Assembly: GCA_964393865.1 (NCBI GenBank)
Contig: CAYMUW010000012.1
Coordinates: 1,392 to 65,391, forward strand
DNA: 64,000 nucleotides
Direction of reading: 5' to 3'
From: an uncultured Lachnospiraceae bacterium
GTDB taxonomy: Bacteria > Bacillota > Clostridia > Lachnospirales > Lachnospiraceae
Below, piece by piece: positions 666 through 20,678 of the stretch (the first letter of the stretch is position 1; each line of letters begins with the position of its first letter). The translations under genes were made by a program, and so were the position numbers. Below the pieces are notes generated by a model that made no database searches, was not told the DNA's origin, and was given only the letters and a program-made list of their open reading frames with translations.

Positions 666-1564
666 ATGAACAGACTCATTTGGATGCTTTAGAAGCAGAA
701 GCAGTTTACATTATGCGTGAAGTGGCGGCGGAATGCGAAAAACCAGTCATGCTGTATTCCATCGGCAAGGATAGCTCAGTAATGCTGCACCTTGCCATGA
801 AGGCATTTTATCCGGAAAAACCGCCCTTTCCATTCTTACATATTGATACGACGTGGAAATTCCATGAGATGATAGAATTCCGTGACTATACAGCAAAAAA
901 ATATGGGATTGAAATGCTGGTTTATACGAATGAAGAAGGAATCGCCAAGGGAATCAATCCGTTTGACCATGGTGCTGCCTATACGGATATCATGAAAACA
1001 CAGGCTTTGAAACAGGCACTTGCCAAGTATGGGTTTACGGCTGCTTTTGGCGGAGGCAGACGTGATGAGGAAAAATCACGTGCCAAAGAGCGTATTTTTT
1101 CTTTTAGGAATAAGGAGCAGGCATGGGATCCAAAGAATCAGCGCCCGGAGATGTGGAACGAATATAATACGTGTATCCATTTGGGAGAAAGCATTCGAGT
1201 ATTCCCAATCTCAAACTGGACAGAAAAAGATATTTGGCAGTACATAGAGCGCGAAAATATAGAGATTGTTTCTTTGTATTATGCCAGGAAACGCCCGGTG
1301 GTATACCGTGATGGAAATATCATTATGCCAGATGATGACCGCATGCCAATCCGTGAGGGTGAAGAAATAGTCATGAAGAAAGTCCGCTTCAGAACCTTAG
1401 GTTGTTATCCTCTGACGGGCGCTATTGAGTCGGAAGCTGATACCTTACCGAAAATCATTGCGGAAACGTTGGGAGCCGTATCCTCGGAAAGAAGCAGCCG
1501 GGTAATTGACAGTGATGGAGGCGCCGCAAGCATGGAAAAACGAAAGAGGGAGGGGTATTTTTAA
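662..1564 (+). CDS. cysD: sulfate adenylyltransferase subunit 2 (CysD)
   Basis: Full-length CysD-like sequence with the PP-loop-type motif [13 protein letters not shown]. The ATG at 662 overlaps the upstream stop (ATGA) and follows the RBS GGAGAAAGGGA. The ORF track starts at a TTG at 653. Confidence 0.95.
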
Positions 1565-3396
1565 TGGATGGGCTGTTGAAATTCATTACCTGCGGAAGTG
1601 TTGATGACGGAAAATCAACGCTGATTGGACATATGCTTTACGATGCTAAGCTTTTGTATGCGGATCAGGAAAAGACTTTGGAATTGGACAGCAGGGTAGG
1701 GAGCAGGGGCGGTGCGATTGATTATTCCCTTTTGTTGGATGGGTTGATGGCGGAAAGGGAACAGGGCATTACAATTGATGTCGCATACAGATATTTTACG
1801 ACTAGAAACAGGAGCTTTATTGTAGCAGACACGCCGGGACATGAGCAATATACTAGAAATATGGCCGTTGGCGCTTCTTTTGCCGATTTGGCAGTTATTC
1901 TCGTGGATGCCCTTCATGGCATACTGACACAAACGAGACGGCACTGCAGGATTTGTGCGATGATGGGGATAAAGTATTTTGTCTTTGCCGTGAATAAGAT
2001 GGATTTGGCAGATTATGAGAAGAATGTTTTTGCAAAGATAGAGAAGGATATTGAAAAGCTGTCAACTGAACTGAAACTGCATTCTGTTACCTGTATCCCG
2101 GTTTCTGCAGTCATGGGAGACAACGTTACGAACCGCTCGCAAAATATGGACTGGTATCATGGAAAGTCATTATTGGATTATCTGGAAACAATAAATGTCA
2201 GGGAGGAAACTGCAGAGGAAGGCTTTGTCATGCCAGTACAGAGGGTTTGCAGACCGGATCGTACATTTAGAGGTTTTCAGGGTCAAGTCGCATGCGGTGT
2301 GCTTGCAGCAGGAGAAACAGTTACTGTGCTGCCGAGCGGGGAGAAAGCTAAAGTTAAGTCTGTCTATAACACAGATAAACAGGTGGGGCAGATTTGCGCG
2401 GGACAGGCTGTGACGATTGCGCTTGACAGGGAGATTGATGTTTCAAGAGGCTGCGTATTTGTCAAGGATACCTCTGTGAAAAATGCGGATCTGTTTCAAG
2501 CGGGAATCCTGTGGATGGACGATGAGGAGCTTATTGACGGTAAATCTTTTCTGCTAAAAATCGGAACCAAAATGGTACCGGCTGCCGTTATGCATATAAA
2601 ATACAGGTTGGCCATAGATACAGGAGAGCATCTGACAGCATCACATATCCATAAAAATGACATGGCGGTCTGCGATATCGTGACATCCGAAAAAATTCCT
2701 TTTGATGAGTTCGCTAAGCATAGGGAGATAGGGCATTTTATACTGATTGATCGTATAACCGACATGACATCGGCATGCGGAGTTGTCAGGCATGAACTTC
2801 GTCGTTCAGAAAATCTTTTTTATCAGCAGATGGATGTGACCGGGGAACGGCGTGCGGCGATGATGAATCAAAGACCGGTTACATTATGGTTTACGGGATT
2901 ATCCGGAGCCGGCAAATCCACATTGGCAAATGAAGTAGAGAAGGCGTTGTTTCTGCGGGGAAAGCATACGATGTCACTCGATGGAGATAATATCAGAATG
3001 GGTCTTAACAAGAATTTAGGATTTACGCAGGAGGACAGAATAGAAAATATCCGGCGTATTGCCGAAGTGGCGAAGCTGATGAATGATGCCGGACTGATTG
3101 TTATGACATCGTTTATTTCGCCGTATCTGAGCGACCGGGAAAATGCGAGAAAAATTATAGGAAGTGGGAACTTTGTTGAAATCTATGTGTCAACGCCTCT
3201 CGCAGAATGCGAGAGGCGCGATGTGAAAGGACTGTACAGAAAAGCAAGGAATGGCGCCATTCCTAATTTTACAGGAATTGGAAGCCGATATGAGGAGCCG
3301 GAGAATGCGGATATCGTGGTTGACACGAGCAACATAACAATAGAAGCTGCCACTGCTTATATTTTAGAGCAGCTTGACAGGATGGAACTGCTATAA
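1564..3396 (+). CDS. cysNC: bifunctional sulfate adenylyltransferase subunit 1 / adenylylsulfate kinase (CysN-CysC fusion)
   Basis: N-terminal GTPase motifs GSVDDGKST, DTPGHEQY and NKMD. C-terminal APS-kinase P-loop GLSGAGKST. The start overlaps the cysD stop (TAATG). Confidence 0.95.
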   Translation: MDGLLKFITCGSVDDGKSTLIGHMLYDAKLLYADQEKTLELDSRVGSRGGAIDYSLLLDGLMAEREQGITIDVAYRYFTTRNRSFIVADTPGHEQYTRNMAVGASFADLAVILVDALHGILTQTRRHCRICAMMGIKYFVFAVNKMDLADYEKNVFAKIEKDIEKLSTELKLHSVTCIPVSAVMGDNVTNRSQNMDWYHGKSLLDYLETINVREETAEEGFVMPVQRVCRPDRTFRGFQGQVACGVLAAGETVTVLPSGEKAKVKSVYNTDKQVGQICAGQAVTIALDREIDVSRGCVFVKDTSVKNADLFQAGILWMDDEELIDGKSFLLKIGTKMVPAAVMHIKYRLAIDTGEHLTASHIHKNDMAVCDIVTSEKIPFDEFAKHREIGHFILIDRITDMTSACGVVRHELRRSENLFYQQMDVTGERRAAMMNQRPVTLWFTGLSGAGKSTLANEVEKALFLRGKHTMSLDGDNIRMGLNKNLGFTQEDRIENIRRIAEVAKLMNDAGLIVMTSFISPYLSDRENARKIIGSGNFVEIYVSTPLAECERRDVKGLYRKARNGAIPNFTGIGSRYEEPENADIVVDTSNITIEAATAYILEQLDRMELL

Positions 3397-4718
3397 TGGG
3401 GAAAAAGGCAAGATTTCTGATATCCATGTTTAAAATAGGAATGATAGGATTCGGCGGCGGCAATGCATTGATTCCGATAATTGAAAAAACGGTTGTAGAG
3501 GAGCAGAACCTTGTATCCAAAACAGAGTATGATGCGGATGTAATGATTGCAAGTATTACTCCTGGGGCACTTCCGGTTGAGATTGCGGGCGGAACTGGAC
3601 GGCGGTTGTTTGGGAGAGGTTATCTTATTGGCGGGGCTGTCGCAATGGCACTGCCGGGTGTCATATTGATGGTGGCGCTTGACGCTGCTATGACTTCGGT
3701 AAATGGGAATGTGTTGAAGCAGATCAATTTCCTGACAATCGGAATCTATGCATTTATCTGCTGTCTGCTGTCGGATTACATCGTGGGAACGGCGCATGAG
3801 AAACGGCAGGAATCTGCACTGCCGGCATGCATGACAGTAATAGGGCTTGTCATAGCTGCCACATGTGGGAAAAATATATATAGGCTGTTAGGGCGTGATA
3901 TACAGCATATCATAACGCTGAATACGATACAGGTATTTGCCGTGGCTTTTGCTGTGACGGCAGCAGTGGAAGGGGTGCGGTATCTTTTAGGATTTGGAAA
4001 GCAGCAGACATATACTATGGAAACCGGTTCCCTAAATTGGCAGACAGCGAAGAAAACAGTGGGGGAATTGCTGTCATGCCTTGCTTTTATGGTACTGCTT
4101 TCCATCCCTGCCCTGATTGTTTCAGAAGAAACGGTTTCGTTTATGGGGCGCGCATTCTTTTCTTCCCTGATTTCTTTCGGCGGAGGTGATGCATATCTTA
4201 CTGTTGCGGATGGGATGTTCGTGCACAAGGGCATGATATCGGAAGATGAATTCTACAGTGTGATTGTACCGCTGGTCAATACTCTGCCAGGTTCTATCTT
4301 GTGTAAGACGTTAAGCGGAATTGGATATTATATAGGATACGGCAGCGGCGGCTCGGTCATAAACGGAACTGCAGTAGCGTTATCCGGTTTTGCAGTCAGT
4401 ATATCGGCATCATGCAGCGTGTTTGCCGTGGCAGCAGGATTATACGAGGGATTGCAGAAAAGCAGGATATTCCGGGTTTTTCATAAGTGGATTAAACCGA
4501 TTGTATCGGGACTTTTGGTTAACGTGATGCTTTCTTTGTTGGTGCAGGTTCGCAGGATTGGCAGTTCCTGTGGAAATTCATTTGGTATATTCATATGTTT
4601 TGTGTTTATCCTGACGGCAAATATGATTCTGTATTACATAGTAAAGTTAAAGAATGAATGGATTATTTTATTTTCTGTTATGACTGCATTTGTTCTATGC
4701 AATGCGGTAGGGGTGTAA
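3396..4718 (+). CDS. chromate-transporter (CHR/ChrA) family membrane protein, two-domain form
   Basis: The CHR signature is duplicated: GFGGGNALIPIIEK in the N half and FGGGDAYLTVADG in the C half. There are many hydrophobic segments. The start overlaps the cysNC stop (TAATG). Confidence 0.8.
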   Translation: MGKKARFLISMFKIGMIGFGGGNALIPIIEKTVVEEQNLVSKTEYDADVMIASITPGALPVEIAGGTGRRLFGRGYLIGGAVAMALPGVILMVALDAAMTSVNGNVLKQINFLTIGIYAFICCLLSDYIVGTAHEKRQESALPACMTVIGLVIAATCGKNIYRLLGRDIQHIITLNTIQVFAVAFAVTAAVEGVRYLLGFGKQQTYTMETGSLNWQTAKKTVGELLSCLAFMVLLSIPALIVSEETVSFMGRAFFSSLISFGGGDAYLTVADGMFVHKGMISEDEFYSVIVPLVNTLPGSILCKTLSGIGYYIGYGSGGSVINGTAVALSGFAVSISASCSVFAVAAGLYEGLQKSRIFRVFHKWIKPIVSGLLVNVMLSLLVQVRRIGSSCGNSFGIFICFVFILTANMILYYIVKLKNEWIILFSVMTAFVLCNAVGV

Positions 4719-4720
4719 GT

Positions 4721-5500
4721 ATGTGGGAAAAAGAATTGGAAACTGCAAAGGAATGTGCCGTCCGTGCCGGCATAGCGGTAATGGACATCTATATCGGACA
4801 GGATGGTTTGGATGTTCAGTATAAAGATGATGACTCCCCACTGACTGCAGCAGATAGGGCATCTAATCAAATTATTGTGGAAACCCTGAAAAAGATGTTC
4901 CCCCTGTATGCTGTTTTATCGGAGGAAGAGAAGGATTCAAGGGAGCGTCTCAGTAATGATTTCTGCTTTGTTGTTGATCCGTTAGACGGTACAAAGGAAT
5001 TTATCAAAAGGAACGGACAGTTTACGGTCAATATTGCGTTAAGTTACCGGCATAAGTCGGTGATGGGTGTAATCTATGTCCCGGCAAGGGGAGAGTTATT
5101 TTATGCTGCACAGGGCAGAGGGGCATTCTTAAAGACACAGGGAAGCGCTGCTCCTGTCAGACTGAAAGTATCTGACAGATTTGGGGATTTACGCTGTGTC
5201 ATGAGCAGCTCTCATAACTGCCAGGAGATGGAAAATCTGATAAAAAAGCATCATTTAAAGAATTTCATCAAAATGGGAAGCTCACTCAAAGGCTGTATCA
5301 TTGCGAAAGGAGAAGCTGAAATCTATTACCGATACAACCCAACAATGGAGTGGGACACGGCGGCAATGCAGTGTATTGTGGAAGAGGCAGGGGGCATTTT
5401 ACGGCAGATGGATGATAGTGAGATGACGTATAATAGGGAAAATCCGTTGAATGATAAAGGATTCTATGTGATTAACAGGAAAGAGAACAGGATTAGATAA
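4721..5500 (+). CDS. cysQ: 3'(2'),5'-bisphosphate nucleotidase (CysQ, inositol monophosphatase fold)
   Basis: Motifs LSEEE, VVDPLDGTKEFI and EWDTAAMQCIVEEAGG. The ATG at 4721 (MWEKELE) lies 2 nt after the upstream stop. The longer track ORF from 4658 overlaps the transporter. Confidence 0.85.
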   Translation: MWEKELETAKECAVRAGIAVMDIYIGQDGLDVQYKDDDSPLTAADRASNQIIVETLKKMFPLYAVLSEEEKDSRERLSNDFCFVVDPLDGTKEFIKRNGQFTVNIALSYRHKSVMGVIYVPARGELFYAAQGRGAFLKTQGSAAPVRLKVSDRFGDLRCVMSSSHNCQEMENLIKKHHLKNFIKMGSSLKGCIIAKGEAEIYYRYNPTMEWDTAAMQCIVEEAGGILRQMDDSEMTYNRENPLNDKGFYVINRKENRIR

Positions 5501-5516: not shown

Positions 5517-8500
5517 ATGAATTTTAAGCTGGTATCAGTTATTATACCTGTTTATAATGTAGAGGCTTATATTGAAAAATGTATAATGAGTATTGTAAGC
5601 CAGACATACAAGAATCTTGAAATAATTTTTGTTAATGACGGTTCTGAGCAAGAGGAGGAATCCATTATCAAGCAATATATGGAAAGAGATTCCAGGATTC
5701 ATTATATCAAGAAAAATGCAAACGAAGGCTTGTTTCGCGCAAGAGTAACGGGGGTGAAGGCCTCACATGGAGATTATATTCAATTTGTAGACAGCGATGA
5801 CTATATTAATGAGGATTTTATACGTCTTTTGGTGAGAAAAGCAGAAGAAGAGGACAGTGATATCACATTTGCACGAACTGTCACATGCACTCCGCGTGGA
5901 AGTGAAAGTATCTATGTGTTCCAAAATATGGAATTATATCAATTGCCTCTTGAAGGATTGGAACTGAAAAAGGCATATTATGGTCAGCATGGTTTTGCAT
6001 ATATTTTTCATACAATCTGGAATAAGCTTTATAAGAGGGAACTATGGATGCAGGCATTGCCGTATTTTGAAAAATTGGGAACGCCGATTGTTATGACGGA
6101 AGATATAGCATTTTCATCAATACTTTTTTATTTCGCTCATAAAGCTTCATGTACAGAAAACGCCGTGTATTTTTATTGTAAGCATACGGATGCCTCAACG
6201 GATTCTAAAGTCATTACTTTAAACCAGTATAAAAAAAGGATTGGAAATGTATGCACTGTTTTTGATTTCCTGCAGGATTTTTTTTCGGACAAAGAAAAGT
6301 GGATCCAAGATTGTATGGCGGATTTTAGGAGATATTATGGGCGTATGTGGCACCGGATTGCCGAGGAGATGGATGAGGCGGAACGGAGTCAGGCATTAGT
6401 GTTATGTAAACGATTAGCGGATGTTGAGTTGGACGATAAGAGTTCTGCCATGGATGATAATTATTTTTGTTATATGGAGATTCCTTACAGTAAATGCCTG
6501 GATGAGATTAAAAAACGTATTTACGAGGGAAGCGAGAGCGTAATCAGCTTTGATGTCTTTGACACGGTGGTTGCTCGTCCCTTTTTCCATCCGACAGACT
6601 TATTTGCTTTTTTGGATAAAAAGTTTGAAGAAATCTATTCTTCAAATATCTCGTTTCAGACAATCAGAACGGAAGGAGAAGAGGGATGCAGAAAGCAGTT
6701 GTGTGACGAGAAGCGCGAGGATGTCACACTGGAAGAAATCTATCAGTATATCAGTGAAATGTATGATATTCCATGGGAAAAAGCCCATAAACTTATGGAA
6801 TATGAAGAAGCATTAGAAATTGAGTTTAATTTCAGGAGAAACACGGGGTATGAATTATATTCACTTGCTTTAGACGCAGGGAAAAAAGTTATTTTCACAT
6901 CGGATATGTATCTTCCTAAGTCCTGCATTGCCAAAATATTGCATAAAAACGGATATACACGGTATGAAGCCGTCTATGTATCCTCTGAATATAAAAAATT
7001 GAAATATACCTCAAGCTTATATAGAGCAGTGCTTTCGGAAATGCACGTAAAACCGGAGGATATCCTTCATATTGGAGATAATCAGGATGCGGATGTAAAT
7101 GGCGCTGAAAAAATAGGAATATCGACAGTTTATATTCCAAAGTCTATGGATGCGTTTTGTGGTAATACGAAAAAGATTACAAATCATCATCGCTTTACGA
7201 TGGGAAAGGACATCGGAGGCAGCTATAGAGGAATGAAGAGCTTTGAAAAAAATATTGCTTATGGAGCAACCATTGCTCTTGCGTCAATAAAATATTTTGA
7301 TAACTCCTATTGTGGTTTCAATGACTTTACTGATTTTAACGTGGATGGTTATTTTGCAGGTTATTACCTGCTGGGAACAAGCCTGCTCGGACAGATTGCA
7401 TGGTTGGAAAATATTGTAAATGAAAAAGGGATTAAAAGGATTATATTTACATCTAGAGACGGCTATCTGCTTATGGAAGCATATAGGCGTTATTTAAAGA
7501 TATGTAAGAAAGAGAAAGAAGTTCTATATTTTTATGTATCTAGAAGGAGCATGATGCCTTGGATTTTGAAAGATAAATTAGATTTTATGTCACTGCCCAT
7601 TGTTTATCAAAAGTATTCACCTGACAGTGTTGAGGAGCTGCTGAGCTTCTGTATATCACACGAAAGTGATGAGGAATGGGAAGATGTTCTTAACACGAAT
7701 GATATCATACGTACTCGTGAATTTGCCTCCATTGTGGAATATCACAAGTTTATGAATTTATTTTTGGCATATAGATATAGCAGTTCAGAGCATATGAAAG
7801 CAAAAAAAACAGTATCACAATATTGCAGTGTGATACATAACGATGACGGCATCTATGACTTGGGTTATAGTGCCTCCATACATAAAGCAATCTGCGATGC
7901 GAGTGGTCGGAAACCTACAGCGCTTTTCATGCATTCGGATGCCGAGAAACATCTGAAAAATGAGCGCATTGGTGGATTTGAGATTGTAAGTATGATGGAT
8001 ACGATTCCTAATGCTAACGGACTTTTGAGAGAATTTTTCTTTTCGGATACGGGAGGAAGTTGTATCGGCTATGAACAAAATGGACAGACAACCCCAATCA
8101 TAGAAAACGAAGATAAAAATTATTCGGATCTGTTTCCAATCCGAATGATGCAGATGGGAGCCTTAAAAATGGTTGATGATTTTTATCATATTTTTAAGGA
8201 TTATCTTCCGTATATGGAAATCAGGACGGAAGAAATGCTGCTGCCTTTTGAAAGTTTTCTGGCATTTCCTGCGGTCATTGATACGAAGATGTTTGCAGCA
8301 TCTTATTTTGAGGACAAGGTATATGGAAAAATCAGTCAGATAAACGTTAGGGATTTTTGGATGCAGCTATTGATTAACCAGCCGGGATATCAGAAAAATG
8401 ACATTATCCATTATTTTGATGAACTGTTAAAAAAATACCATAAGAAAAAACTGGCTTTTTTTGGAACCGGTAAAATGTGCGAAGCAATGTTTGAAACAAA

Positions 8501-8717
8501 TCCTGATATACCTGTGGAGATTTATTTGGATAACGATATAAGAAAAACAGGACAGAAATATAGAGGCAGGAAGATTTATTTACCCAAAGATTATCCGAAT
8601 TTGAAAGAATTATATATTGTTGTTGTCATTGCTTTTTACAAAGAAGTAGAAGAACAGTTAAGGGATATGGGATTGGTGAAATACGAAGATTATCTCAATT
8701 ATTTGGAATTGTTTTAA
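5517..8717 (+). CDS. 1066-aa multidomain protein: GT2 glycosyltransferase + HAD-like hydrolase + unassigned region + C-terminal Rossmann-like module
   Basis: N-terminal GT2 motifs VSVIIPVYNVEAYIEKC..FVNDGS and DSDD. HAD-type DxDxT motif (FDVFDTVV) and HIGDNQDAD. C-terminal FFGTG..LDNDIRKTGQKYRG. RBS GGGAGGGAAACAG precedes the ATG. Confidence 0.8.
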   Translation: MNFKLVSVIIPVYNVEAYIEKCIMSIVSQTYKNLEIIFVNDGSEQEEESIIKQYMERDSRIHYIKKNANEGLFRARVTGVKASHGDYIQFVDSDDYINEDFIRLLVRKAEEEDSDITFARTVTCTPRGSESIYVFQNMELYQLPLEGLELKKAYYGQHGFAYIFHTIWNKLYKRELWMQALPYFEKLGTPIVMTEDIAFSSILFYFAHKASCTENAVYFYCKHTDASTDSKVITLNQYKKRIGNVCTVFDFLQDFFSDKEKWIQDCMADFRRYYGRMWHRIAEEMDEAERSQALVLCKRLADVELDDKSSAMDDNYFCYMEIPYSKCLDEIKKRIYEGSESVISFDVFDTVVARPFFHPTDLFAFLDKKFEEIYSSNISFQTIRTEGEEGCRKQLCDEKREDVTLEEIYQYISEMYDIPWEKAHKLMEYEEALEIEFNFRRNTGYELYSLALDAGKKVIFTSDMYLPKSCIAKILHKNGYTRYEAVYVSSEYKKLKYTSSLYRAVLSEMHVKPEDILHIGDNQDADVNGAEKIGISTVYIPKSMDAFCGNTKKITNHHRFTMGKDIGGSYRGMKSFEKNIAYGATIALASIKYFDNSYCGFNDFTDFNVDGYFAGYYLLGTSLLGQIAWLENIVNEKGIKRIIFTSRDGYLLMEAYRRYLKICKKEKEVLYFYVSRRSMMPWILKDKLDFMSLPIVYQKYSPDSVEELLSFCISHESDEEWEDVLNTNDIIRTREFASIVEYHKFMNLFLAYRYSSSEHMKAKKTVSQYCSVIHNDDGIYDLGYSASIHKAICDASGRKPTALFMHSDAEKHLKNERIGGFEIVSMMDTIPNANGLLREFFFSDTGGSCIGYEQNGQTTPIIENEDKNYSDLFPIRMMQMGALKMVDDFYHIFKDYLPYMEIRTEEMLLPFESFLAFPAVIDTKMFAASYFEDKVYGKISQINVRDFWMQLLINQPGYQKNDIIHYFDELLKKYHKKKLAFFGTGKMCEAMFETNPDIPVEIYLDNDIRKTGQKYRGRKIYLPKDYPNLKELYIVVVIAFYKEVEEQLRDMGLVKYEDYLNYLELF

Positions 8718-8732
8718 ATGCGGAGGAAGTTT

Positions 8733-10092
8733 ATGAGCCATAAGTTGATTGTACATATTGGAATGCCCAAAACGGGAACCACTGCTATTCAGGATTTTTT
8801 GTTTGATAATTCGGAAAAGCTGAAAAAGTACGGATATTGTTATCCGGATCTGATTAGTGAACTGAGAGATAGGGAATATGACATAAAGTGCAGACAGGAA
8901 GGGTTGACTAAAAATGGCGTTGTTCTTTCTTTATTCAGAAGCTGGGAAGACCATTCTGACATTAATAAAGTCAATGAAAAAGCATGGTATTTATTTAAGG
9001 AATTATTGGAAAAGCATCTTGCTGTATGTAATGTGATTATTTCGGATGAAGATTTATGGTGTCAAGGGAATAATTATGCGATATTAAGGCGCTTAAAAGA
9101 GATATGTAATGATATGAAAATCATATGCTACATAAGACGGCAGGATTTGGAAGCAGAAGCTTTGTGGAATCAGGTGGTCAAAAGATACGGATATTGTAAT
9201 ACACCGTTTCCTGAAAGTAAAAGCAGATGGCTGGACGGCAGAGCCATGAAATATCAGGAATTGCTGGAAAATTTTGAAAAAATCGCTGGCTTTGAAAAAT
9301 TGCATGTCCGTGTGTATGAAAAACAACAGTTGTATGGCATCAACGGAGATATTGTAGAGGATTTTTTACATATTCTTGGTATTGAAAAAGGCTGTGAAGA
9401 ATGGATAGAGCGAAAAAAATCAAATGAGCGGTTGAACGGCAGTATGCTAAATATAAAAATGAACATGAACAAGAGTTTATCAAAAGAGAATTGGTTTTCA
9501 GCAATTGTGGAAGAACAGTTTATGAACGTGATTGCCAAGCATTGCAGCTTTGGAGAGGAGCTTATGGAGGGTTATTTTACCTTGGAAGAAAGGCAGCAAG
9601 TGATAGAACGATTTCAAGACGAAAACAGGATAATCGCTAAAAGGTTTTTGGGAAGATTGGATGGAAGACTGTTTTATGATGAAGTGAAGGATATGCCGCT
9701 GCATTCTGATGAGATTTCAAGTGCAGACATGGTGGAAGTATTTACCGCAATGATTCTGGAGTTGAATGAAAAGATATGGAAGCTGTACTCAAAAGGGTAT
9801 GCTGGTATGATAGGTTCCAGGAAATGCACTTTATTTGGAGCGGGGGGGGCAATGCAGAAAGTTTTGCTCTATATATAGTGAGTTACCGATTGACTTGGTT
9901 GTTGACAATGACAGGAGTAAAACAGGGACAAAAATATACGGTCACAGTGTAAAACACTTTGATGAAATAGCAGATTGGAACGAGCGTTTTATTATTATTA
10001 CATGTTACGCGTATAAAGATATTTCAGAGCAACTGCAGGGTGTTGGAATGCGGGAGAACACGGATTTTATTGTTTTTTTCGATGCTGAATAA
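8733..10092 (+). pseudogene. sulfotransferase-like protein interrupted by a frameshift in a G8 tract (frames 8733-9878 and 9835-10092)
   Basis: PAPS-binding-like motifs IVHIGMPKTGTT and IRRQDLEAEALWNQ. The protein is collinear with the intact paralogue at 10104-11468. The reading frame is restored by deleting one G at 9842-9849. Confidence 0.75.
9842..9849 (+). repeat. G8 homopolymer at the frameshift point
   Basis: Read directly: gga gcGGGGGGGGc aat. The stop follows 8 codons later in the current frame. Confidence 0.95.
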
Positions 10093-10103
10093 GGAGGCAA
10101 TCT

Positions 10104-11468
10104 ATGCAAAACAGAATAATAGTACATATTGGAATGCCGAAGACAGGTACTAGTTCCATTCAGAATTTTTTATTTGATAATGCCGAGAAATTAAGACAAT
10201 ATGGGTATTGTTATCCTGATTTTTTGAAAGAGATGAATGAGGCGGGATATGTTATGGCGGCAAGACCAGTGGAACGGAGCAAAAATGGGCTTGCTGCGAT
10301 TATATTGAGAGAATGGGAAGTTCAGACTGATTGTAAAAATAAATTCGCAGAAGCATGGAATTCCCTTGAAACAAAAATAGTTTCATATCTGAAACGGTAT
10401 CATGTAATTATTTCATGTGAAGAAATTTGGATTAGGAAAAATTGTTTTGAATTACTTAGCTGGTTAAAACATATAACCCCTAATATCTGCGTGGTTGTGT
10501 ATTTGAGAAGACAGGATCTGGCAATGGAAGCTATGTGGAATCAAGACATAAAAAGATATAGATATTTGGGGAAAACGCTAGCGCAATGTCTGGAAGGTCC
10601 GGAAAAGGAGTGGATGGAGGAAAGAGTATTAGGATATCTCGAAAAACTAACAAAAGTACAGGATATTGTTTCGATGGATAACATGATTGTACGTATATAT
10701 GAATCACAGCAGATGTATCAAATGTCTGGCGATGTGATTGATGATTTTTTATATACATTGGGAATCCCGATAAGTGACGGTGAATGGATTAAACGCAATC
10801 CATCCAATGAAAGATTGAATGGCAGTTTGCTGAATATCAAGAAGACAATGAATGAATGTTTAGCAGGAAGAGAATGGTTCTCGGGAATCATAGAAGAATA
10901 TGTATTAAAAGCTGCTTCTGAACTAAACTTTCCCAATGAAAAAGAAGCATATTTTTCATTGGAAGAAAGAAAAAGATTTATTGAAAGTTATGCGGAAGAA
11001 AACAGTGAGATTGCGAAAAAATTTTTGAAACGTTCTGACGGAAGACTGTTTTATGATGAAGTAAAAGATCTTTCGTTACATACGGATACAATCTTATTGG
11101 AAGATATCATTAAGTTGTTTACTTACATCGCATTGGAACAGGAAAAAAAAATTTATGAAAAAACCAAATTTTGTATTCCTGATTTTTTGCTGAAAGGCAG
11201 AAAACTGACATTGTTCGGGGCAGGGTATCAATGTAAAAAATTTCTCGCTCAGAATAACTTATCGGTAGACCTGATTGTAGATAACAATCGAAGTAAATCA
11301 GGAACAGAGATATATGGCTGTAAAGTCAAGCATTTTGATGAAGTAACAGATTGGAGTCAAAGATTTGTGGTAATTACATGTGTTGCATGTTTGGAAATGA
11401 TAGAACAATTAAGAGCATTGGGTATGCAGTACAATCTGGATTTTGTTGTATTTGAAGATAATGTATAA
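10104..11468 (+). CDS. sulfotransferase-like protein with C-terminal Rossmann-like module (intact paralogue)
   Basis: Motifs IVHIGMPKTGTS (5'-PSB-like) and YLRRQDLAMEAMWNQ (3'-PB-like). C-terminal LFGAGYQC..VDNNRSKSGTEIYG. RBS AAGGAGG. The gene sits next to the PAPS synthesis genes. Confidence 0.75.
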   Translation: MQNRIIVHIGMPKTGTSSIQNFLFDNAEKLRQYGYCYPDFLKEMNEAGYVMAARPVERSKNGLAAIILREWEVQTDCKNKFAEAWNSLETKIVSYLKRYHVIISCEEIWIRKNCFELLSWLKHITPNICVVVYLRRQDLAMEAMWNQDIKRYRYLGKTLAQCLEGPEKEWMEERVLGYLEKLTKVQDIVSMDNMIVRIYESQQMYQMSGDVIDDFLYTLGIPISDGEWIKRNPSNERLNGSLLNIKKTMNECLAGREWFSGIIEEYVLKAASELNFPNEKEAYFSLEERKRFIESYAEENSEIAKKFLKRSDGRLFYDEVKDLSLHTDTILLEDIIKLFTYIALEQEKKIYEKTKFCIPDFLLKGRKLTLFGAGYQCKKFLAQNNLSVDLIVDNNRSKSGTEIYGCKVKHFDEVTDWSQRFVVITCVACLEMIEQLRALGMQYNLDFVVFEDNV

Positions 11469-11482
11469 GAAATAAAACATAT

Positions 11483-12535
11483 ATGCTATGGGGAAAGATT
11501 ATGCAGATCAATAGTTATGAGTTAAAGCCTATACTGGCAACAATTATAAAGGCTGATGAAAGGATGTTTTACGCAGCTTCAAAGGGAGTCCGTATCGTTG
11601 AATGGAATTCTATTGGAATCAACATACTTTATGCCGAGGAAACTGATAATCTGTGGGGAGCGTTCCATTTTTCGGCTGTATTTCATGAGAGTATTTTTTT
11701 CTTTCCACGTAATTATGATTATGTTATAAAATATGACATTATCCAAAAACAAACAGAAAAAATTGCTGTTCCAGGGAAACAAAACGAAGAATTTATGCTT
11801 CCGTATATCAATAATGATGCTTTTATGATGATAGGACTGAGCAGCGGCAATGTGTACAAATGGGTTGATGAATGTGCATTTGAAAAGGTATCGCAGCTGG
11901 ATTGGGGATGTGAACAGTGGAAACTTAATAAACAAGGCGCACGAATTGAAAATATACTCTTTTGGAACACAGATAAAGAAATTGCAATTTTAGACAAAGA
12001 GAATCTGATGATTAAGAGGATAGTCATTTCAACTGATGAAATTTTGTATGCGGCTGGAGATGAGAGGCATTTATTTTGGGTATCGGAGTCGGGAGATGTA
12101 TATTCCCAGTATGATAAGTTCGGAGATTTTAACTACTTGTTTCATTTGGAATTTCCTGTTTCTGATTTAGCGCGTTTTATATATCGTGAGCATAGCCTAT
12201 ATCTTTTGCCCCACACCGGTAATCAGATTTATGTGATAAAGGAAAATTCGGAAGCATCGGTTGTAAACCTAGAGTTGGATTTAAAGGATAAAAATGTGAA
12301 TTGGGCAGTTTGTGAAGACGGTTTCATCGGAGTGGCAGAGAATATTGATAAACCATGGAATGGGGAGTTGACCTTTTTTACTTATAATCCGTCCGGTCAT
12401 ATAGTATTGAAACTTCCTTTTGAAGAGGCTGCAATGAAATACTTGTTCCATAAGAATATAAAAAACGGGATTTTGATTCGAGAAGGAGAAAATAACGATT
12501 TAAAGACATATTTAAAACTTGTAAAAGGGAGCTGA
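11483..12535 (+). CDS. hypothetical soluble protein (no motif recognised)
   Basis: Long ORF in the operon orientation with low-GC codon usage like its neighbours. An alternative start is the ATG at 11501 after GGGGAAAG. No TM segment or signal peptide is seen. Confidence 0.6.
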   Translation: MLWGKIMQINSYELKPILATIIKADERMFYAASKGVRIVEWNSIGINILYAEETDNLWGAFHFSAVFHESIFFFPRNYDYVIKYDIIQKQTEKIAVPGKQNEEFMLPYINNDAFMMIGLSSGNVYKWVDECAFEKVSQLDWGCEQWKLNKQGARIENILFWNTDKEIAILDKENLMIKRIVISTDEILYAAGDERHLFWVSESGDVYSQYDKFGDFNYLFHLEFPVSDLARFIYREHSLYLLPHTGNQIYVIKENSEASVVNLELDLKDKNVNWAVCEDGFIGVAENIDKPWNGELTFFTYNPSGHIVLKLPFEEAAMKYLFHKNIKNGILIREGENNDLKTYLKLVKGS

Positions 12536-12630
12536 CATTATGATGCGAGATTCATGTTTATCACATGTTGAATGGTTTGGCAATGAAAAAGAAACAGTTT
12601 TATGTGCAGTGATTGTATTAAGGGAGAAAA

Positions 12631-13827
12631 ATGATTAGTATTATTGTTCCAATCTATAATGTGGAATCTTATCTGTATCAGTGTATGGACAGTATTATCA
12701 AACAGACTTATCAGGATATTGAAATTATTTTGGTGGATGACGGTTCCCTTGACGGTGGAGGAAAGATCTGCGATGCCTATGCCGGGCGCGATTGCAGAAT
12801 CAAAGTGATCCATAAAGAAAACGGGGGTCTTGTCAGTGCGCGAAAGGCCGGATTATCTGTGGCGGAAGGAGAATGGATCGGCTATGTGGACGGCGATGAC
12901 TGGATTGAGCCGGATATGTATGAGAAATTGATGATTAAGGCTTTGGAATATGATGCTGATATTGCTATGTGCGGCAGATATGAAGATACAGGGGATATAT
13001 CAAAACCTGTATATCATGGCTTCCCCGAAGGATATTATGACAGGAATAAGCTGCTGACAGAGATTTATCCCAAAATGATGGTGGGAAGGGATTTTTTTGA
13101 ATGGGGGATTTTCCCCGGTGTATGGGATAAGCTTTTCAAGAGGGAAATAATAGAGGATTTCCAGATGCAGGTAGATGAGAGGATTATGATGGGTGAGGAT
13201 GCAGCCTGCGTGTATCCGTGTATGCTGTCGGCCAAAAGAGTGTATATATTGCACGAATGCCTCTACCATTACAGGCAGTCAACGGATTCTATGATAAAAA
13301 GGAAGGAGGATACCGCAGTTGAAAGAGAACGCTTTGAAATACTGTATACCTCTGTATTGCAGCAGTTGGATAGGCTGAAGGGCGTATACAGTCTAACAAA
13401 CCAGTGGAAAAAATATATGCTTTTTCTTATGCTTCCAAGGGCTGACAGTTTATATGACGGGGTTGAAAACCTGGATTATCTCTTTCCGTTTCCCGGCGTA
13501 TCAAAGGGCGAAAAAATCTTGTTGTACGGAGCCGGAACATATGGGCAAAGATTGTACCAATGGTTAAAGGAGTCTTCGTTTTGCAGCGTAATCATGTGGG
13601 CTGACAGGAATTATAAGGAAATCCAAAAGCATGGATTGGACGTGCGCAGTCCGGAGGAAATCAGGAATGCGGATTTTGACCATATCGTAATTGCTATCAT
13701 CAATGCAGGAGTGAGGAAAGCAGTCAAAAGAGAGCTTGCGGAAATCTATGGGGAGAACAAAGTGGAGGGCATTGATGAGAAACTGATCATGAGTGAGGAT
13801 ACAGAAAGGAAATTCCGCATGAGATAG
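12631..13827 (+). CDS. GT2 glycosyltransferase with C-terminal Rossmann-like module
   Basis: Motifs ISIIVPIYNVESYLYQC..LVDDGS and DGDD. C-terminal LLYGAGTYGQ..WADRNYKEIQKHGLDV. RBS GGGAG. Confidence 0.85.
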   Translation: MISIIVPIYNVESYLYQCMDSIIKQTYQDIEIILVDDGSLDGGGKICDAYAGRDCRIKVIHKENGGLVSARKAGLSVAEGEWIGYVDGDDWIEPDMYEKLMIKALEYDADIAMCGRYEDTGDISKPVYHGFPEGYYDRNKLLTEIYPKMMVGRDFFEWGIFPGVWDKLFKREIIEDFQMQVDERIMMGEDAACVYPCMLSAKRVYILHECLYHYRQSTDSMIKRKEDTAVERERFEILYTSVLQQLDRLKGVYSLTNQWKKYMLFLMLPRADSLYDGVENLDYLFPFPGVSKGEKILLYGAGTYGQRLYQWLKESSFCSVIMWADRNYKEIQKHGLDVRSPEEIRNADFDHIVIAIINAGVRKAVKRELAEIYGENKVEGIDEKLIMSEDTERKFRMR

Positions 13828-14980: not shown

Positions 14981-16429
14981 TTATGAGCGGTAAGTTTCCA
15001 TGCCTGGTTTAAGAGCCGCGTCCTGTCCTTTTGCGGCAGGATGTCCGAGATACTGTTCCATATTAGCCATTTTCTGTTTAAGAGATCTGGCTTCCTGCTC
15101 GGCTGATCTGCATGTTTTCTCAAGAGCGGTCTTACGGGTCAGCATCGCTTCATAGTCAGCACGGATCTCATCCGAATCGACAGATTTCGGGTCAAGCCCT
15201 ATCTTTTGGAGCATACGCTCAGCGCCGTCATACAGGATCAGCTGGGTTTCGTGCATCCGAAGGTATCTGTCCGGATCTTTTGATCTATTATATTTCTCCT
15301 GATACGGTTTATTGTCCCTGTACTGCTCTGCATAGAGGAGCAGTTCTGAGATTTTTTTCATTTCATGCTCCAGTTCCACAAGCCCGGTGCGGGCAGATCT
15401 TGCCCCTGCGGTCTTTTCATCTATCTGCTCATGGAGCTCAGCCAGGCTATCTGCGGCGGCGTAACTGGAAGCGGCAGTTTTGAGGTTCTTAATAGCTGCC
15501 CAGTGCTGCAGTCCGGGGCTGCTTTTGAATTTCTCGCTGGTGGTGTCGATAAGCGTTCTGCTCGCACTGGTGCGGGTGATGATGTCCTTCTTTGGAACCT
15601 TGATCCGTGATTTCTGTTTAGGAGCCTCTGTAGTAACAGGCTCCTGACAGTCCTGTTTTACATTCTGCCATTTCTCCGGATTCTCAATCCTGTCTTTGAT
15701 ATCCTCTTTGGTATATCCTAATCCAAAATTGCGTAAGCTGCCGCGCACCGAACGCTCCTGTCCTGGGGCAAGGAACTTTATATATTTCGCATGAGGATCA
15801 CCGATTTTTTCTCCGGTGATTTTGTAGCCTTTTTCTCTGATCAGGCGCAGGAACTCTTCATAGGATTCAGAGAGTTTGATGCATTCATCAATATCTGCCT
15901 GCAGCCGCTTTTTCCATGAGATGCCTTCCTGTTCGGCTTTCCACTCCACATATTTTTTGCCTTTTCTGCCGCTCGGCTCAATGATGGAAAGGTTGTGTTC
16001 CTTGCATAATTCATCACTGAGCTGCCGGATGTGGTAATAGCTTTTCTTGCAGGCGTTATATTTTTTGTGGTCGATATTATCGGCGGCGCAGAAAATGATG
16101 TGGTTATGAGGGTGGCCTTTATCCACGTGGGTTGCTACAACATAGGAGTATTTTCCTTCCAGCAATCTGTCGGCAAGCTCAATTCCGATTCTGTGTGCTT
16201 CTTCGTAAGAAACCTCACCTTTTGCAAAAGACTGGATCAGGTGATATGCCAGATTTTTATCGGAGGACTTCGTTCTGCAAAGAGCGTAATCAAAGTCATG
16301 CCTGGCAGTATCGGGATGACAGCCAAAAGAATCAACAAGCAGTTGCTGCTCGGTTTTATCAGGGTTACAAATATAATTTACAGCTTTTGTAACGGTACTT
16401 TTGATAGCATGGATTCGTGTGTATGCCAT
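14981..16429 (-). CDS. relaxase/mobilisation nuclease (MobA/VirD2 family)
   Basis: N-terminus MAYTRIHAIKS..YICNPDKT, HLIQSF, and the histidine triad HVDKGHPHNHIIF. Confidence 0.9.
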   Translation of the reverse strand: MAYTRIHAIKSTVTKAVNYICNPDKTEQQLLVDSFGCHPDTARHDFDYALCRTKSSDKNLAYHLIQSFAKGEVSYEEAHRIGIELADRLLEGKYSYVVATHVDKGHPHNHIIFCAADNIDHKKYNACKKSYYHIRQLSDELCKEHNLSIIEPSGRKGKKYVEWKAEQEGISWKKRLQADIDECIKLSESYEEFLRLIREKGYKITGEKIGDPHAKYIKFLAPGQERSVRGSLRNFGLGYTKEDIKDRIENPEKWQNVKQDCQEPVTTEAPKQKSRIKVPKKDIITRTSASRTLIDTTSEKFKSSPGLQHWAAIKNLKTAASSYAAADSLAELHEQIDEKTAGARSARTGLVELEHEMKKISELLLYAEQYRDNKPYQEKYNRSKDPDRYLRMHETQLILYDGAERMLQKIGLDPKSVDSDEIRADYEAMLTRKTALEKTCRSAEQEARSLKQKMANMEQYLGHPAAKGQDAALKPGMETYRS

Positions 16430-16722
16430 ATCTTATCCATCAGCTCCTTTATCTCATTTAGGTCTTCTTCGTAAATATTCCCGGTTTTCATAATCCGCGT
16501 TCTTATCATGTTTATGTTTCTTCCGAGTGCGGCGATCTGATAGTTGTATTCTTTCAGACCGCTATAGTCGATGTCGTAGGTATAACCGTACAGGATCAGG
16601 TGACGGATATACTCGGATATATTTCGCATTTTGGATGCCTTGAACTTTTCATCCAGGACATATTTTTCATCTTCACTGAGATATACCTGTATGGGGATTT
16701 TGCGTTCCCGCTCTTTACTCAT
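16378..16722 (-). CDS. mobC: relaxosome accessory protein MobC
   Basis: RHH-like N-terminus (IQVYLSEDEKYVLDEK) and GRNINMIRTRI typical of the MobC family. It lies immediately upstream of, and overlaps, the relaxase. Confidence 0.85.
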   Translation of the reverse strand: MSKERERKIPIQVYLSEDEKYVLDEKFKASKMRNISEYIRHLILYGYTYDIDYSGLKEYNYQIAALGRNINMIRTRIMKTGNIYEEDLNEIKELMDKIWHTHESMLSKVPLQKL

Positions 16723-16829
16723 GATGAGACACTTCCTTTCAATATTGCCGTTTCCGGCGAATTATCTTTTTGGCAGAAATGCTTCGGTTTCCGTAGAGGT
16801 AAAAAGATGTAGTTCTGCATTAACGGGGG

Positions 16830-17160
16830 TCAGGGGGGAGTATCCCCTTGCAAGCTCATTTGCGCGTAACTTCGAGGCAGGCGGACATGCTCGCATGGAC
16901 ATCTGCCGAGAAGCGCGGCATCGGGCAGTTTATTGCCCGATGCGCCATTTTTCCGGCAGGAGAAATGGTCAGCAAATGTGGATGTGTCATGACACATCCA
17001 ATGCTTGGTATTCTTCTTGCAAATCCGTCAGGATTTGCGGGTTCAGACTGCCATAGGGCAGGCGGCTTTGAACCCATAACGCCGTATCCGGCGATTGTTC
17101 TTATGCTTTTGTACTGTGGGGAAAATAACGGTAAAATAAAAAACTGCCACAGTACGGGCG
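16830..17160. other. candidate oriT / structured DNA region upstream of mobC
   Basis: Noncoding stretch with clustered inverted repeats at 16918-16943, 16979-17000 (perfect 22-nt palindrome), 17019-17038 and 17111-17119/17147-17155. Confidence 0.4.
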
Positions 17161-17357
17161 CACGGGCAGCGCCGGTAATCGTAGCAGTTTTGGTGTTTTC
17201 TTGAAGTAACTCAAATTTTATCAGATGAACCGGTGATGGTCAATGTGTTTAATAGAAAATCGTCCACAAGTTGGGGGCGATTTTCGGTCGAAAAAATTCA
17301 ACTCAATCTGGGGTAAAATTGACGAGCGCTGCATAGAATATAGGAAACAGATTTTTC

Positions 17358-17387
17358 TTGACTAGGGTCTATATCACGGTATATACT
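17358..17387 (+). promoter_or_regulatory. putative sigma-A promoter of vapBC
   Basis: TTGACT (17358-17363), 18-nt spacer, TATACT (17382-17387), about 25 nt upstream of the vapB ATG. Confidence 0.45.
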
Positions 17388-17411
17388 ATAAATGAAAGGA
17401 AGGTGATCATT

Positions 17412-17642
17412 ATGATGACTGCAAAGGTTTTTGAAAATGGAAGAAGTCAGGCAATCAGACTTCCTAAGGAATGTCGTTTCACATCAGATGAGGTGATGGT
17501 GAATAAGATTGGTGATATTGTGATCCTGCTTCCCAAGCAGAATAAATGGGATTCTTTTATGAGAGCGATAGATATGTTCTCTGATGATTTTATGGCTGAT
17601 GGAAGATCAACAGATATTTGTCAGGAGCGTGAAGCACTATGA
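17412..17642 (+). CDS. vapB: VapB-type antitoxin (AbrB/MazE/SpoVT fold)
   Basis: FENGRSQAIRLPKECRF motif. RBS GAAAGGAAGGTGA precedes the ATG at 17412. The stop overlaps the vapC start. Confidence 0.8.
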   Translation: MMTAKVFENGRSQAIRLPKECRFTSDEVMVNKIGDIVILLPKQNKWDSFMRAIDMFSDDFMADGRSTDICQEREAL

Positions 17643-18040
17643 GATATATGCTTGATACAAACATCTGCATCTATGCGATCAAGCATAAGCCGGAGAAGGT
17701 GTTTCAGAAATTACAGGAAGTTGATCCTGAAGACGTATGTGTATCTTCGGTCACATATGCAGAACTTGTGCATGGTGTAGAAAAAAGTGCCGCCGTAGAA
17801 AAAAACAGGCTGGCACTTTCCATGCTTCTCGCAAATATAGAGATTTTGAATTTCGATGTAGATGCGGCGGACTGTTACGGAAAGATCCGGGCAGGTCTTG
17901 AAAAGAAAGGTATGCCGATTGGCCCCCTTGATATGATGATCGCAGGTCATGCGATGTCAATGGGGTACACTGTGGTAACGAACAATGTAAAAGAGTTCTC
18001 CAGAATCCCGGATCTGAAAATAGAGAACTGGACTGAGTGA
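17639..18040 (+). CDS. vapC: VapC-type PIN-domain toxin
   Basis: MLDTNICIY (first acidic PIN residue), typical length of 133 aa, 4-nt overlap with vapB. Confidence 0.9.
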   Translation: MRYMLDTNICIYAIKHKPEKVFQKLQEVDPEDVCVSSVTYAELVHGVEKSAAVEKNRLALSMLLANIEILNFDVDAADCYGKIRAGLEKKGMPIGPLDMMIAGHAMSMGYTVVTNNVKEFSRIPDLKIENWTE

Positions 18041-18050
18041 TTATAATTTA

Positions 18051-18668
18051 TCATAGTTCGCTCAGTTGCATTTCATAATAAAATCGGAAAGTAGAGTCTG
18101 GAAAGCTTCTTATATATTTGTCTATTGATTCCCTGGTAATTTGATTCGCCAGGGAATATTTTTTTATTATTTTTCTGGCTTCGTCGTTGGAGCAGTCCAA
18201 ATAACGATCCAAGTTTTTAAGTAAATCAAGAATCTGAAGAACCTTTACATTATCATTATCTATCTTCACATAAGGACGGCGGACAATAAATATCTGCTCA
18301 CCTATGATTATTTCCCGAACGATAGCTGCCATATTATTGCTGACAATCTCCTTTTTCATAGGAACCTGCTGGGAAATGCCTATGAGGTTTGCGAAGGTGC
18401 TGCCGGAATAATACCCGTCTGTCCTTCCGTGACGGGAAATATATTTATACCTTGCAACGGTTTCCGGGCTTGGTCCGGCCGAGGAACTGAATCTTGTCCG
18501 TTTCGGGATGTAGTAGATCCCTTTTTCATACCTGACGATTTTTCCGGCATCCGCAAGTGTTTTGATCTGCTGGCGGAAGTTATCCCTTTTCATTCCCTCT
18601 ATATGAATATCATCGAGGAAAATCGGTTCCGCATTTTTGTAATGGTCCTTCAAATATTCAAAAAGCAT
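18051..18668 (-). CDS. AbiEi-like / DUF6088-like transcriptional regulator (orphan; no AbiEii partner)
   Basis: N-terminal pattern EPIFLDDI..LADAGKIVRYEKGIYYIPK resembles the winged-helix N-domain of AbiEi antitoxins. The family call comes from memory of that motif only. Confidence 0.55.
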   Translation of the reverse strand: MLFEYLKDHYKNAEPIFLDDIHIEGMKRDNFRQQIKTLADAGKIVRYEKGIYYIPKRTRFSSSAGPSPETVARYKYISRHGRTDGYYSGSTFANLIGISQQVPMKKEIVSNNMAAIVREIIIGEQIFIVRRPYVKIDNDNVKVLQILDLLKNLDRYLDCSNDEARKIIKKYSLANQITRESIDKYIRSFPDSTFRFYYEMQLSEL

Positions 18669-18911
18669 AGCCTGCTCCTTATAAAATCACGAAATATAAT
18701 ATATAATATTATACAAAATGAATTATAAAGAAGAAAAATGAAAATGTCAATAGGAAAAATGAAAATCAGCCAAGACCCATCGGGATAAGACAGGGGATGA
18801 AGCCGTAAAAATATTAAAAAATTCTTTTTCATCCGCTACGTTTCGTGGCACCCGGACACAGTTAATAAATGTAAGGATGTTTAGAAGGTTCCGCACGGAA
18901 AGGAAGGGACT

Positions 18912-20391: not shown

Positions 20392-20420
20392 GGATCAGAG
20401 GAAAGAGACTTGTACACTTG

Positions 20421-20597
20421 CTACTTTCCAGGCTGTTTCTTCATAAGCTCTTCTACACCTTTAAGCAGCGTTTCTGTTATGGTCATATCGTGCTCTTCGG
20501 CATACTCCTTGATGACTTTGTATTCGTCATTCGTAACCCGAACACCGAGAGACTTTTCCCTTGGATCATCTGCCTTTGGTCTCCCCATCTTCGCCAT
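20421..20597 (-). CDS. 58-aa ribbon-helix-helix-type protein (below the ORF-track length cutoff)
   Basis: My own translation: MAKMGRPKADDPREKSLGVRVTNDEYKVIKEYAEEHDMTITETLLKGVEELMKKQPGK. RBS AAGGGGG lies upstream. The gene sits between the Xis-like gene and int. Confidence 0.6.
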   Translation of the reverse strand: MAKMGRPKADDPREKSLGVRVTNDEYKVIKEYAEEHDMTITETLLKGVEELMKKQPGK

Positions 20598-20678
20598 TCG
20601 GAGTACCCCCTTTCTCTTGTCTCTTCCCTATTATAGTTTTTGTGGAACGCAAAGTCAAGGACTTTTTGTTAAACACAA

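Follow-up and report, generated by a model that had tools for sequence, protein, structure and literature searches.

A small Rossmann-type module at the C-termini of unrelated enzymes in a Lachnospiraceae glycan locus, and its candidate nucleotide site

Why should a glycosyltransferase, two sulfotransferase-like proteins and a pyruvyl transferase end in what looks like the same ~90 residues, and what could such an ending do for them? The question is raised by a 64,000-nucleotide stretch of an uncultured Lachnospiraceae bacterium (GenBank assembly GCA_964393865.1, contig CAYMUW010000012.1, positions 1,392 to 65,391), here called the window, to which the coordinates below refer unless another locus is named. 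An original prediction, made from the sequence alone, held that one Rossmann-like C-terminal module is appended to five enzymes of this stretch and acts as a shared docking, oligomerisation or ligand-sensing handle, and all five peptide strings that it quoted do occur where it had placed them. We name the enzymes A to E in their order on the plus strand. A (5517-8717, 1066 residues) combines a GT2 domain, a HAD domain and ~400 unassigned residues; B (8718-10092), whose module is out of frame, and C (10104-11468, 454 residues, intact) are the sulfotransferase-like genes 1 and 2; D (12631-13827) is a GT2 protein of 398 residues; and E (21856-23106) is a polysaccharide pyruvyl transferase whose 5' end is lost. 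All five lie in a single plus-strand gene cluster, in which E comes after a 7-kb mobile element.

Homology and integrity of the five copies

The module occupies the C-terminal 91 residues of A (8442..8714), where it reads FFGTGKMC ... YLDNDIRKTG and carries the motif string GGCDNDKGG, the tail of B (9816..10089), the C-terminal 90 residues of C (11196..11465), the C-terminal ~106 residues of D (13507..13824), with a canonical GAGTYG loop and a displaced Asp after β2 (MWAD), and, in degenerate form, the C-terminal 104 residues of E (22792..23103). When the last 95-110 residues of each protein were compared by pairwise BLASTP, A matched B at 1.6e-16 and C at 1.5e-11, and the modules of B and C, which are 55% identical, matched each other at 2.6e-39. 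The scores for C-D and D-E were 1e-3 each, and only these weak values, which involve D and E, speak for a chance similarity. To avoid circularity, we trained a hidden Markov model (HMM) solely on the C-terminal parts of 19 homologues of C from outside the window, and with it searched every one of the 484 segments of 50 residues or more that a six-frame translation of the window yields. This leave-out model recovered C, B (4e-26), A (1e-21) and D (8e-6), and the next-best segment was E, at the right position and with a non-significant E-value of 0.41. For E, its pyruvyl transferase family was gathered (296 matches, mostly ~430 residues long among the 120 listed). The C-terminal tail is present in 22 of the 22 homologues inspected, and an hhalign comparison of the A-D family with the E-family tails gave a probability of 90%, P=1.6e-6 and 70 columns in register (P=7e-5 in an earlier version). 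An HMM of the five copies found no sixth copy in the window, and a word-indexed homology search with a four-sequence module alignment returned only two proteins. Copies A-D are homologous, and E is a remote, degenerate relative of them, which retains G8 and D30 (module numbering) and has lost G10, N31 and K35. The significant alignment on which the original prediction had staked itself is provided by BLASTP and the leave-out HMM and, for E, by hhalign.

The claim of one module on five enzymes holds as four clear copies and a degenerate one, but not as five intact fusions, because the module of B is out of frame and E is truncated at its 5' end, which leaves A, C and D as the only intact fusions in this genome. 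In B, a run of eight G residues (9842..9849, plus strand) within the Gly-loop codons of the module produces a +1 frameshift, and the gene as sequenced consists of a 386-residue open reading frame (ORF; 8718-9878) plus a separate 85-residue module ORF (9835-10092). Seven G residues instead of eight would put LFGAGGQCRK in frame, and module B is readable only by skipping one base. A Logan contig (L080, run SRR10165008) that looks independent and is 100% identical over 13.9 kb has the same G8 run. The run could reflect phase variation or a pseudogene that has become fixed, or the two assemblies could share a sequencing error. At another locus (L001, 5210-6590), a further gene combining sulfotransferase and module is frameshifted ~30 codons ahead of the module, giving a lone 115-residue module ORF, and the 90% cluster of protein P0019 occurs as a truncated 362-residue form on 116 contigs, compared with intact 469-residue forms on ~20. 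The damage to E is of a different kind. Compared with the full-length protein P0058 (98% identical, starting MKYGYLFYQKP...NLGDPIQSF), E lacks the first 30 codons, and its homology to P0058 opens at 21895, immediately past the Tn916-like integrative mobilizable element (14981..21894; recognized from its Pfam content, strand not assigned). This element has replaced the first 30 codons of E.

Fold, relatives and separability of the module

AlphaFold2 modeled module C with a pLDDT score (predicted local distance difference test) of 95.4 and the order strand-helix-strand-strand-strand-helix-strand. Module E was modeled with a pLDDT of 91.8 and, like C, has alternating strands and helices with a small parallel sheet, so that both models show the β-α-β mini-Rossmann fold, as expected if the segments are one module. 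In Foldseek searches, the closest structure to the module C model was Rex (E=6e-5, TM-score 0.65, 28% identity), followed by 3NKL, 2G6T (2g6t_A; E=5.6e-3, TM-score 0.64), VioB and the acetyltransferase domain of PglB, and the module E model retrieved Rex (TM-score ~0.7), the CoA-binding domain of succinyl-CoA synthetase alpha and 2g6t_A (E=9.4e-3, TM-score 0.61). A profile of the family searched against the PDB sequences matched 3NKL at 6e-6, Rex at 0.02-0.04 and 2G6T at 0.14. D exceeds the gathering score of PglD_N (PF17836; 23.4), both as a whole protein (23.7 bits, E=7e-5) and as an isolated module (26.3 bits, 1e-5), and the modules of A, B, C and E do not reach this threshold. The resemblance to PglD/NeuD and WbaP/CapD proteins that the original prediction had pointed out is borne out by the PglD_N match of D, the 3NKL profile match and the Foldseek results.

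The closest catalogued family is PF22674, "C2185-like, N-terminal", which is named after CAC2185, a DUF1919-type protein of Clostridium acetobutylicum with the structure 2G6T. Precomputed annotation places PF22674, flagged "weak" (E<=1e-3), on A, on the 85-residue ORF of B and on D. Unmarked matches are found on 15 module-bearing sulfotransferase homologues and none on the module-less ones, and one tagged ORF of a related locus has the exact DUF1919 plus C2185-like_N architecture. Our local hmmscan of the five isolated modules gave no PF22674 match at E<=10, and the same local model does match related proteins at 1e-15 and 2e-18. Judged from the models and these annotations, the module forms an autonomous mini-Rossmann domain of ~90 residues that probably belongs to C2185-like_N. 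This family is already catalogued, with a Pfam model and a crystal structure, and no functional work on PF22674, CAC2185, 2G6T, DUF1919 or HI1244 was found in the literature searched. The arrangement differs from that of the founding protein: the domain is N-terminal to DUF1919 there, whereas here it is C-terminal on GT2, sulfotransferase-like and pyruvyl transferase proteins.

More widely, the module belongs to one superfamily with PglD_N, the N-domain of CapD/WbpM/PglF-type dehydratases and Rex, and is related to the core of Methyltransf_14, which elsewhere matches the same stretch as the module (up to 3e-11), as does CoA_binding. It shares its fold with the PglD_N domains of the PglD, VioB, PerB and PglB acetyltransferases, and its GxG ... 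D-N-x-x-x-K-x-G ... V motif lines up with theirs. Because Pfam detected no Hexapep/LbH (left-handed β-helix acyltransferase) domain in the five proteins and the module is C-terminal, the window proteins are not PglD/NeuD-type enzymes and have only the accessory domain in common with them; the trimer interface that forms the active-site context in PglD-type enzymes is absent from the window proteins. In 3NKL, an N-domain of the CapD/WbpM type, IYGAG and DDDrkK align with LFGAG and DNDxxK of the module. The domain of unknown function (DUF) of WbaP, which the literature leads us to place in the same superfamily, is like the module an accessory mini-Rossmann domain on glycoconjugate enzymes. However, in the membrane proteins WbaP, PglF, CapD and WbpM the domain is flanked by a four-helix membrane bundle on one side and the catalytic domain on the other, while the module here is terminal, and Pfam identified no four-helix bundle of the WbaP type in the window proteins. 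Scans of the window proteins, the modules and related tagged proteins gave no match to PF13727 (CoA_binding_3), and the relation to the WbaP DUF is at the superfamily level only, through 3NKL. In the NADH-binding domain of Rex, GxG and FDxxxxKxG align with the module in the profile matches, but the Rossmann domain of Rex is longer, and Rex also contains a winged-helix DNA-binding domain and a domain-swapped helix.

The module is separable from its hosts. Homologues of C of ~455 residues carry it, and forms of 340-400 residues stop before it. When 1.84 billion representatives of 50% identity clusters were searched exhaustively with HMMER, the module was found in 7,751 of them at E<=1e-3 and in 516 at E<=1e-10, and among the best 146 representatives it is C-terminal, N-terminal, internal, alone, or present in 2-4 tandem copies. 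Its partners include Radical_SAM/SPASM, GT2, GT1/GT4, GT6, GT8, GT32, class I methyltransferase, LicD, cytidylyltransferase, Capsule_synth, HAD and TIM barrel domains. The survey of distribution and fusion partners that the original prediction had proposed thus reveals a wide spread over many enzyme classes, and the notion of a separable handle, not integral to the catalytic domains, is upheld by homologues with and without the module and by its free placement in the 146 representatives. One protein, P0178 (locus L083, 84-1949), has four tandem modules followed by a cytidylyltransferase domain and adjoins an ABC-2 type exporter pair; in three of its four copies, D30 is replaced by Glu and K35 by Trp or Thr. 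The explanation that the C-terminal segments are similar by chance, or are merely the integral ends of the respective catalytic folds, is refuted by these tests and we give it hardly any credence: the leave-out HMM, the profile-profile statistics, the confident, independent fold predictions, the homologues with and without the module and its free placement in other proteins all speak against it.

A candidate nucleotide site

What the module might do is suggested by its conserved residues. Across 224 instances, G8 is conserved in 95%, G10 in 93%, D30 in 90%, N31 in 74% and K35 in 69%, and the other most conserved positions are D/N32, G37, G42, V/I45, L73 and G77; an acidic residue ends strand 2 in 90% of the instances. 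The GxGxxG loop reads GAGTYG in D and GxGxxC in A, B and C, and one Gly of it is left in E. The sheet of module C, with ~5 strands within ~90 residues, has fewer strands than that of a complete Rossmann domain. An hhalign comparison of the family with the N-domain of VioB (probability 85%, P=6e-6) brings G8/G10/D30/N31/K35/G37/V45 of the module into register with G8/G10/D32/N33/K37/G39/V47 of VioB, such that LFGAG is aligned with IVGAG, and I-D-N-D-x-x-K-x-G-x-x-I-x-G-x-x-V with L-D-N-T-V-E-K-Q-G-T-F-I-R-D-I-P-V. In the crystal structure of VioB with a sugar linked to deoxythymidine diphosphate (dTDP), Asp32 and Lys37 form hydrogen bonds with the ribose, the amide of Asn33 anchors the thymine, and Gly8 packs on the ribose (PMC9271549). 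A, B and C have counterparts of all four residues (G8, D32, N33 and K37 in VioB). In D the glycines and a Lys are retained, but the Asp has shifted, and E keeps G8 and the Asp only. From this residue-level match to the dTDP contacts, we infer that the module may bind the nucleoside part of a nucleotide, and the ligand-sensing part of the original prediction gains support and appears plausible.

We therefore favor, tentatively, a reading in which the module is a nucleotide-binding handle, probably sensory, that is common to several enzymes of one glycan pathway. The nucleoside would be held by the Gly-x-Gly turn that follows strand 1 and the Asp-Asn-x-x-x-Lys stretch that follows strand 2, as in VioB with dTDP. 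The enzymes of the pathway would share a pocket for one pathway nucleotide, for example uridine monophosphate (UMP), uridine diphosphate (UDP), another nucleoside diphosphate (NDP) or an NDP-sugar, and in this way glycosyl transfer would be adjusted jointly with sulfation and further tailoring steps, along the lines suggested for the WbaP DUF, which binds UMP; the module may dimerise as well. A, B and C carry the complete motif and D a shifted version of it, E has lost most of it and may be structural only, and in this strain module B is uncoupled by the frameshift. Rex employs the fold as a sensor rather than as an enzyme. The WbaP DUF is stabilised by UMP, UDP and uridine triphosphate (UTP), forms the dimer interface and structurally resembles the N-domain of PglF-like dehydratases, to which class 3NKL belongs, and its authors proposed an allosteric sensor that is possibly common to several glycoconjugate enzymes (PMC10942596). 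We prefer a sensory role because close homologues can lack the module, because it varies freely in position and copy number, and because its partner enzymes use different donors.

Several observations weigh against a sensory nucleotide handle. A common ligand is not obvious, because the tagged enzymes use UDP-sugars, 3'-phosphoadenosine-5'-phosphosulfate (PAPS), phosphoenolpyruvate and S-adenosylmethionine, and which nucleotide it would be is a matter of guesswork. In A, B and C, the last Gly of the GxGxxG loop is a Cys. G8, G10, D30 and K35 occur together in only 62% of the instances, E-type copies have lost most of the motif, and the conserved glycines and the buried Asp could be purely structural. 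When scanned alone against the local Pfam, the modules of A, B and C, and also that of E, gave no match. Finally, the all-or-none contrast between loci that is described in the next section is weakened, because the module-less loci have few GT2 homologues and may be a different kind of locus.

The same residues can also be explained by substrate anchoring, in which the module would hold the nucleoside-diphosphate or undecaprenyl-diphosphate end of the acceptor and thus have a catalytic, not a regulatory, role. PglD_N does so for UDP- and dTDP-amino sugars in N-acetyltransferases, the motif equals the dTDP-contacting residues of VioB one by one, the Methyltransf_14 core that the module matches is that of NDP-hexose C-methyltransferases, and every partner enzyme acts on activated or carrier-linked sugars. 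However, close sulfotransferase homologues and many enzymes of the tagged loci have no module, a free position and up to four copies would be unusual for an active-site wall, and the E copy has lost the motif; moreover, characterised polysaccharide pyruvyl transferases use lipid-linked or polymeric acceptors. We consider this explanation unlikely. If the motif instead had no ligand at all, the module could be an inert appendage, a relic Rossmann half-domain that serves folding, solubility or spacing and has neither ligand nor partner. The E-type copies, which are motif-poor yet kept in every homologue inspected, would be consistent with this, as would the 38% of instances in which at least one of the four key residues is absent. 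It is nevertheless quite improbable, because G8, G10 and D30 remain 90-95% conserved among fusions with ~20% overall identity, and because the domain is maintained on many unrelated enzymes, in sets per locus.

Tagged sets and the gene cluster

To see how tagged enzymes are distributed, we scanned 79 loci, most of them of Lachnospiraceae origin, in which a homologue of C is encoded and which had been gathered with an alignment of the full-length sulfotransferase. Where this homologue bears the module, the locus has 1-5 more tagged ORFs in nine of nine cases (2-6 per locus, 31 in total), and these encode GT2, GT1, GT32, Caps_synth, radical SAM, FkbM methyltransferase and DUF1919 proteins. Where it is module-less, the HMM found no tagged ORF (0 in 70 loci, 1.2 Mb). 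Seven seeds of other architectures led to one contig too short for a count and to six loci with sufficient surrounding sequence, of which five have 3-8 tagged ORFs and one has a single ORF with four copies. These sets fit a pathway-level role, whether through a common ligand or through mutual association. The modules of one locus are no more alike than those of different loci, with median identities of 22.4% within and 23.6% between loci. The nearest neighbor of a module lies in its own locus in 11 of 36 cases, mostly as whole-gene paralogues, and the closest relatives usually sit on the same enzyme type elsewhere. The equal divergence and these same-type relatives imply that the fusions are old and that the sets have been kept up and did not arise by recent copying. 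We also considered whether modules inside a locus evolve in concert or co-adapt, and neither idea gains support from these identities and nearest neighbors. The sole sign of recent copying or gene conversion within a locus was seen in L035 (5329-9142), where three adjacent ORFs have modules that are 88-93% identical.

Sets of this kind would also fit a docking or oligomerisation handle. In that explanation, the modules pair with each other or with a common partner, the enzymes assemble at the membrane, and the motif is structural or secondary. Locus-wide co-occurrence and the frequent tandem copies are compatible with assembly of a multi-enzyme complex. Copies frequently occur in tandem (2-4), and of 25 such pairs, the full motif is intact in 8 first copies versus 17 second copies, with one copy often degenerate, so that the pairs resemble pseudo-dimers with one working site. 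The WbaP DUF, a relative, dimerises through the domain itself (PMC10942596; PMC12802240). Rex, another relative, also dimerises. On the other hand, the ~22% identity within a locus, no higher than between loci, shows no trace of a shared interface that has co-adapted, conservation is highest in the classical ligand crevice, and the β-hairpin of the WbaP dimer is not evident in the secondary structure of the module C model. A conserved hub is also missing: the 350-residue ORF between C and D (11483-12535, no Pfam match), considered as a hub for the modules, was rejected, as it has no homologue in any of the 79 related loci. Docking as the primary function seems doubtful to us, although the sensory handle that we favor may dimerise. 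A broader proposal, in which C2185-like_N is a pathway-wide tag that couples up to eight unrelated tailoring enzymes, so that they are co-regulated or assembled via a common nucleotide or via each other, is likewise improbable on our present estimate.

As functional analogues only, CBS domains in Bateman pairs and KTN/RCK domains can be compared with the module: these too are small nucleotide-binding regulatory domains that are promiscuously fused and often occur in tandem with one degenerate site. CBS has an unrelated fold, and KTN is a full Rossmann domain on ion channels. Neither is known to tag many enzymes of one operon.

The surroundings of the tagged enzymes indicate what the pathway may make. 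The cluster's gene list is headed by a gene for a DUF4422 protein (plus strand). Directly upstream of the tagged enzymes, on the plus strand, lies a complete PAPS supply cassette (653..5500), which by Pfam encodes CysD (PAPS_reduct, 1e-57), a CysN-CysC fusion (GTP_EFTU plus APS_kinase, 8e-67), a ChrA-like transporter (Chromate_transp) and a CysQ-like PAP phosphatase (Inositol_P, 8e-52). The cassette points to a sulfated surface glycan as the product of the locus, and its proximity supports the tentative assignment of B and C as sulfotransferases. Their host domain matches Pfam Sulfotransfer_3 at E=0.01, below threshold, and homologues match Sulfotransfer_1 and Sulfotransfer_4 at 1e-3 to 3e-2, also below threshold. 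The sulfotransferase-like family has invariant HxGxPKTGT and YLRRQD motifs, and homologues of CysD and CysNC adjoin sulfotransferase homologues in ~40 of the 79 related loci. In a search of the PDB sequences with the full sulfotransferase profile, the sole match was 3NKL, through the module, and the catalytic domain had no detectable solved relative. In protein A, the ~425 residues between HAD and the module (residues ~551-975, 7167-8441) gave no Pfam match.

Downstream of D, an NAD-dependent epimerase/dehydratase gene (13911-14960) lies in a GC-rich stretch (52.8% at 14-16 kb, compared with ~36% in the glycan genes), and the Logan contig that covers the locus stops at 14041; this gene may be part of the inserted element rather than of the glycan locus. 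The Tn916-like element itself encodes a relaxase of the MobA/VirD2 type, a protein resembling NikA, a sigma-70 region 4 protein and a toxin-antitoxin pair (MazE/PIN), together with DUF6088, DUF6462 and HTH_16. The integrase, of Tn916 type (DNA-binding domain plus Phage_integrase), is split into two overlapping ORFs (19487-20230 and 20140-20391).

A role for accessory mini-Rossmann domains of glycoconjugate enzymes has been recognized only recently, with the finding that the WbaP DUF binds UMP and dimerises, and its authors speculated on the coordination of pathway flux (PMC10942596). In the window and in ~15 related loci, a sister domain is found on many classes of glycan enzymes, several per locus, and it recurs in thousands of protein clusters. 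Within the literature searched, both the mapping of its residues onto a nucleotide site and the tagging of many enzymes of one glycan locus by one domain appear to be new. If the module acts as a sensor of one common nucleotide or as a means of assembly, this would account for the way in which gut Firmicutes match tailoring steps such as sulfation and pyruvylation to the synthesis of the backbone, and it would provide a sequence marker for such pathways and a function for the uncharacterised PF22674. Should the idea of a pathway-wide tag prove true, it would reveal a modular logic in the assembly of Firmicutes surface polysaccharides, comparable to the docking domains of polyketide synthases and nonribosomal peptide synthetases or to a shared allosteric switch.

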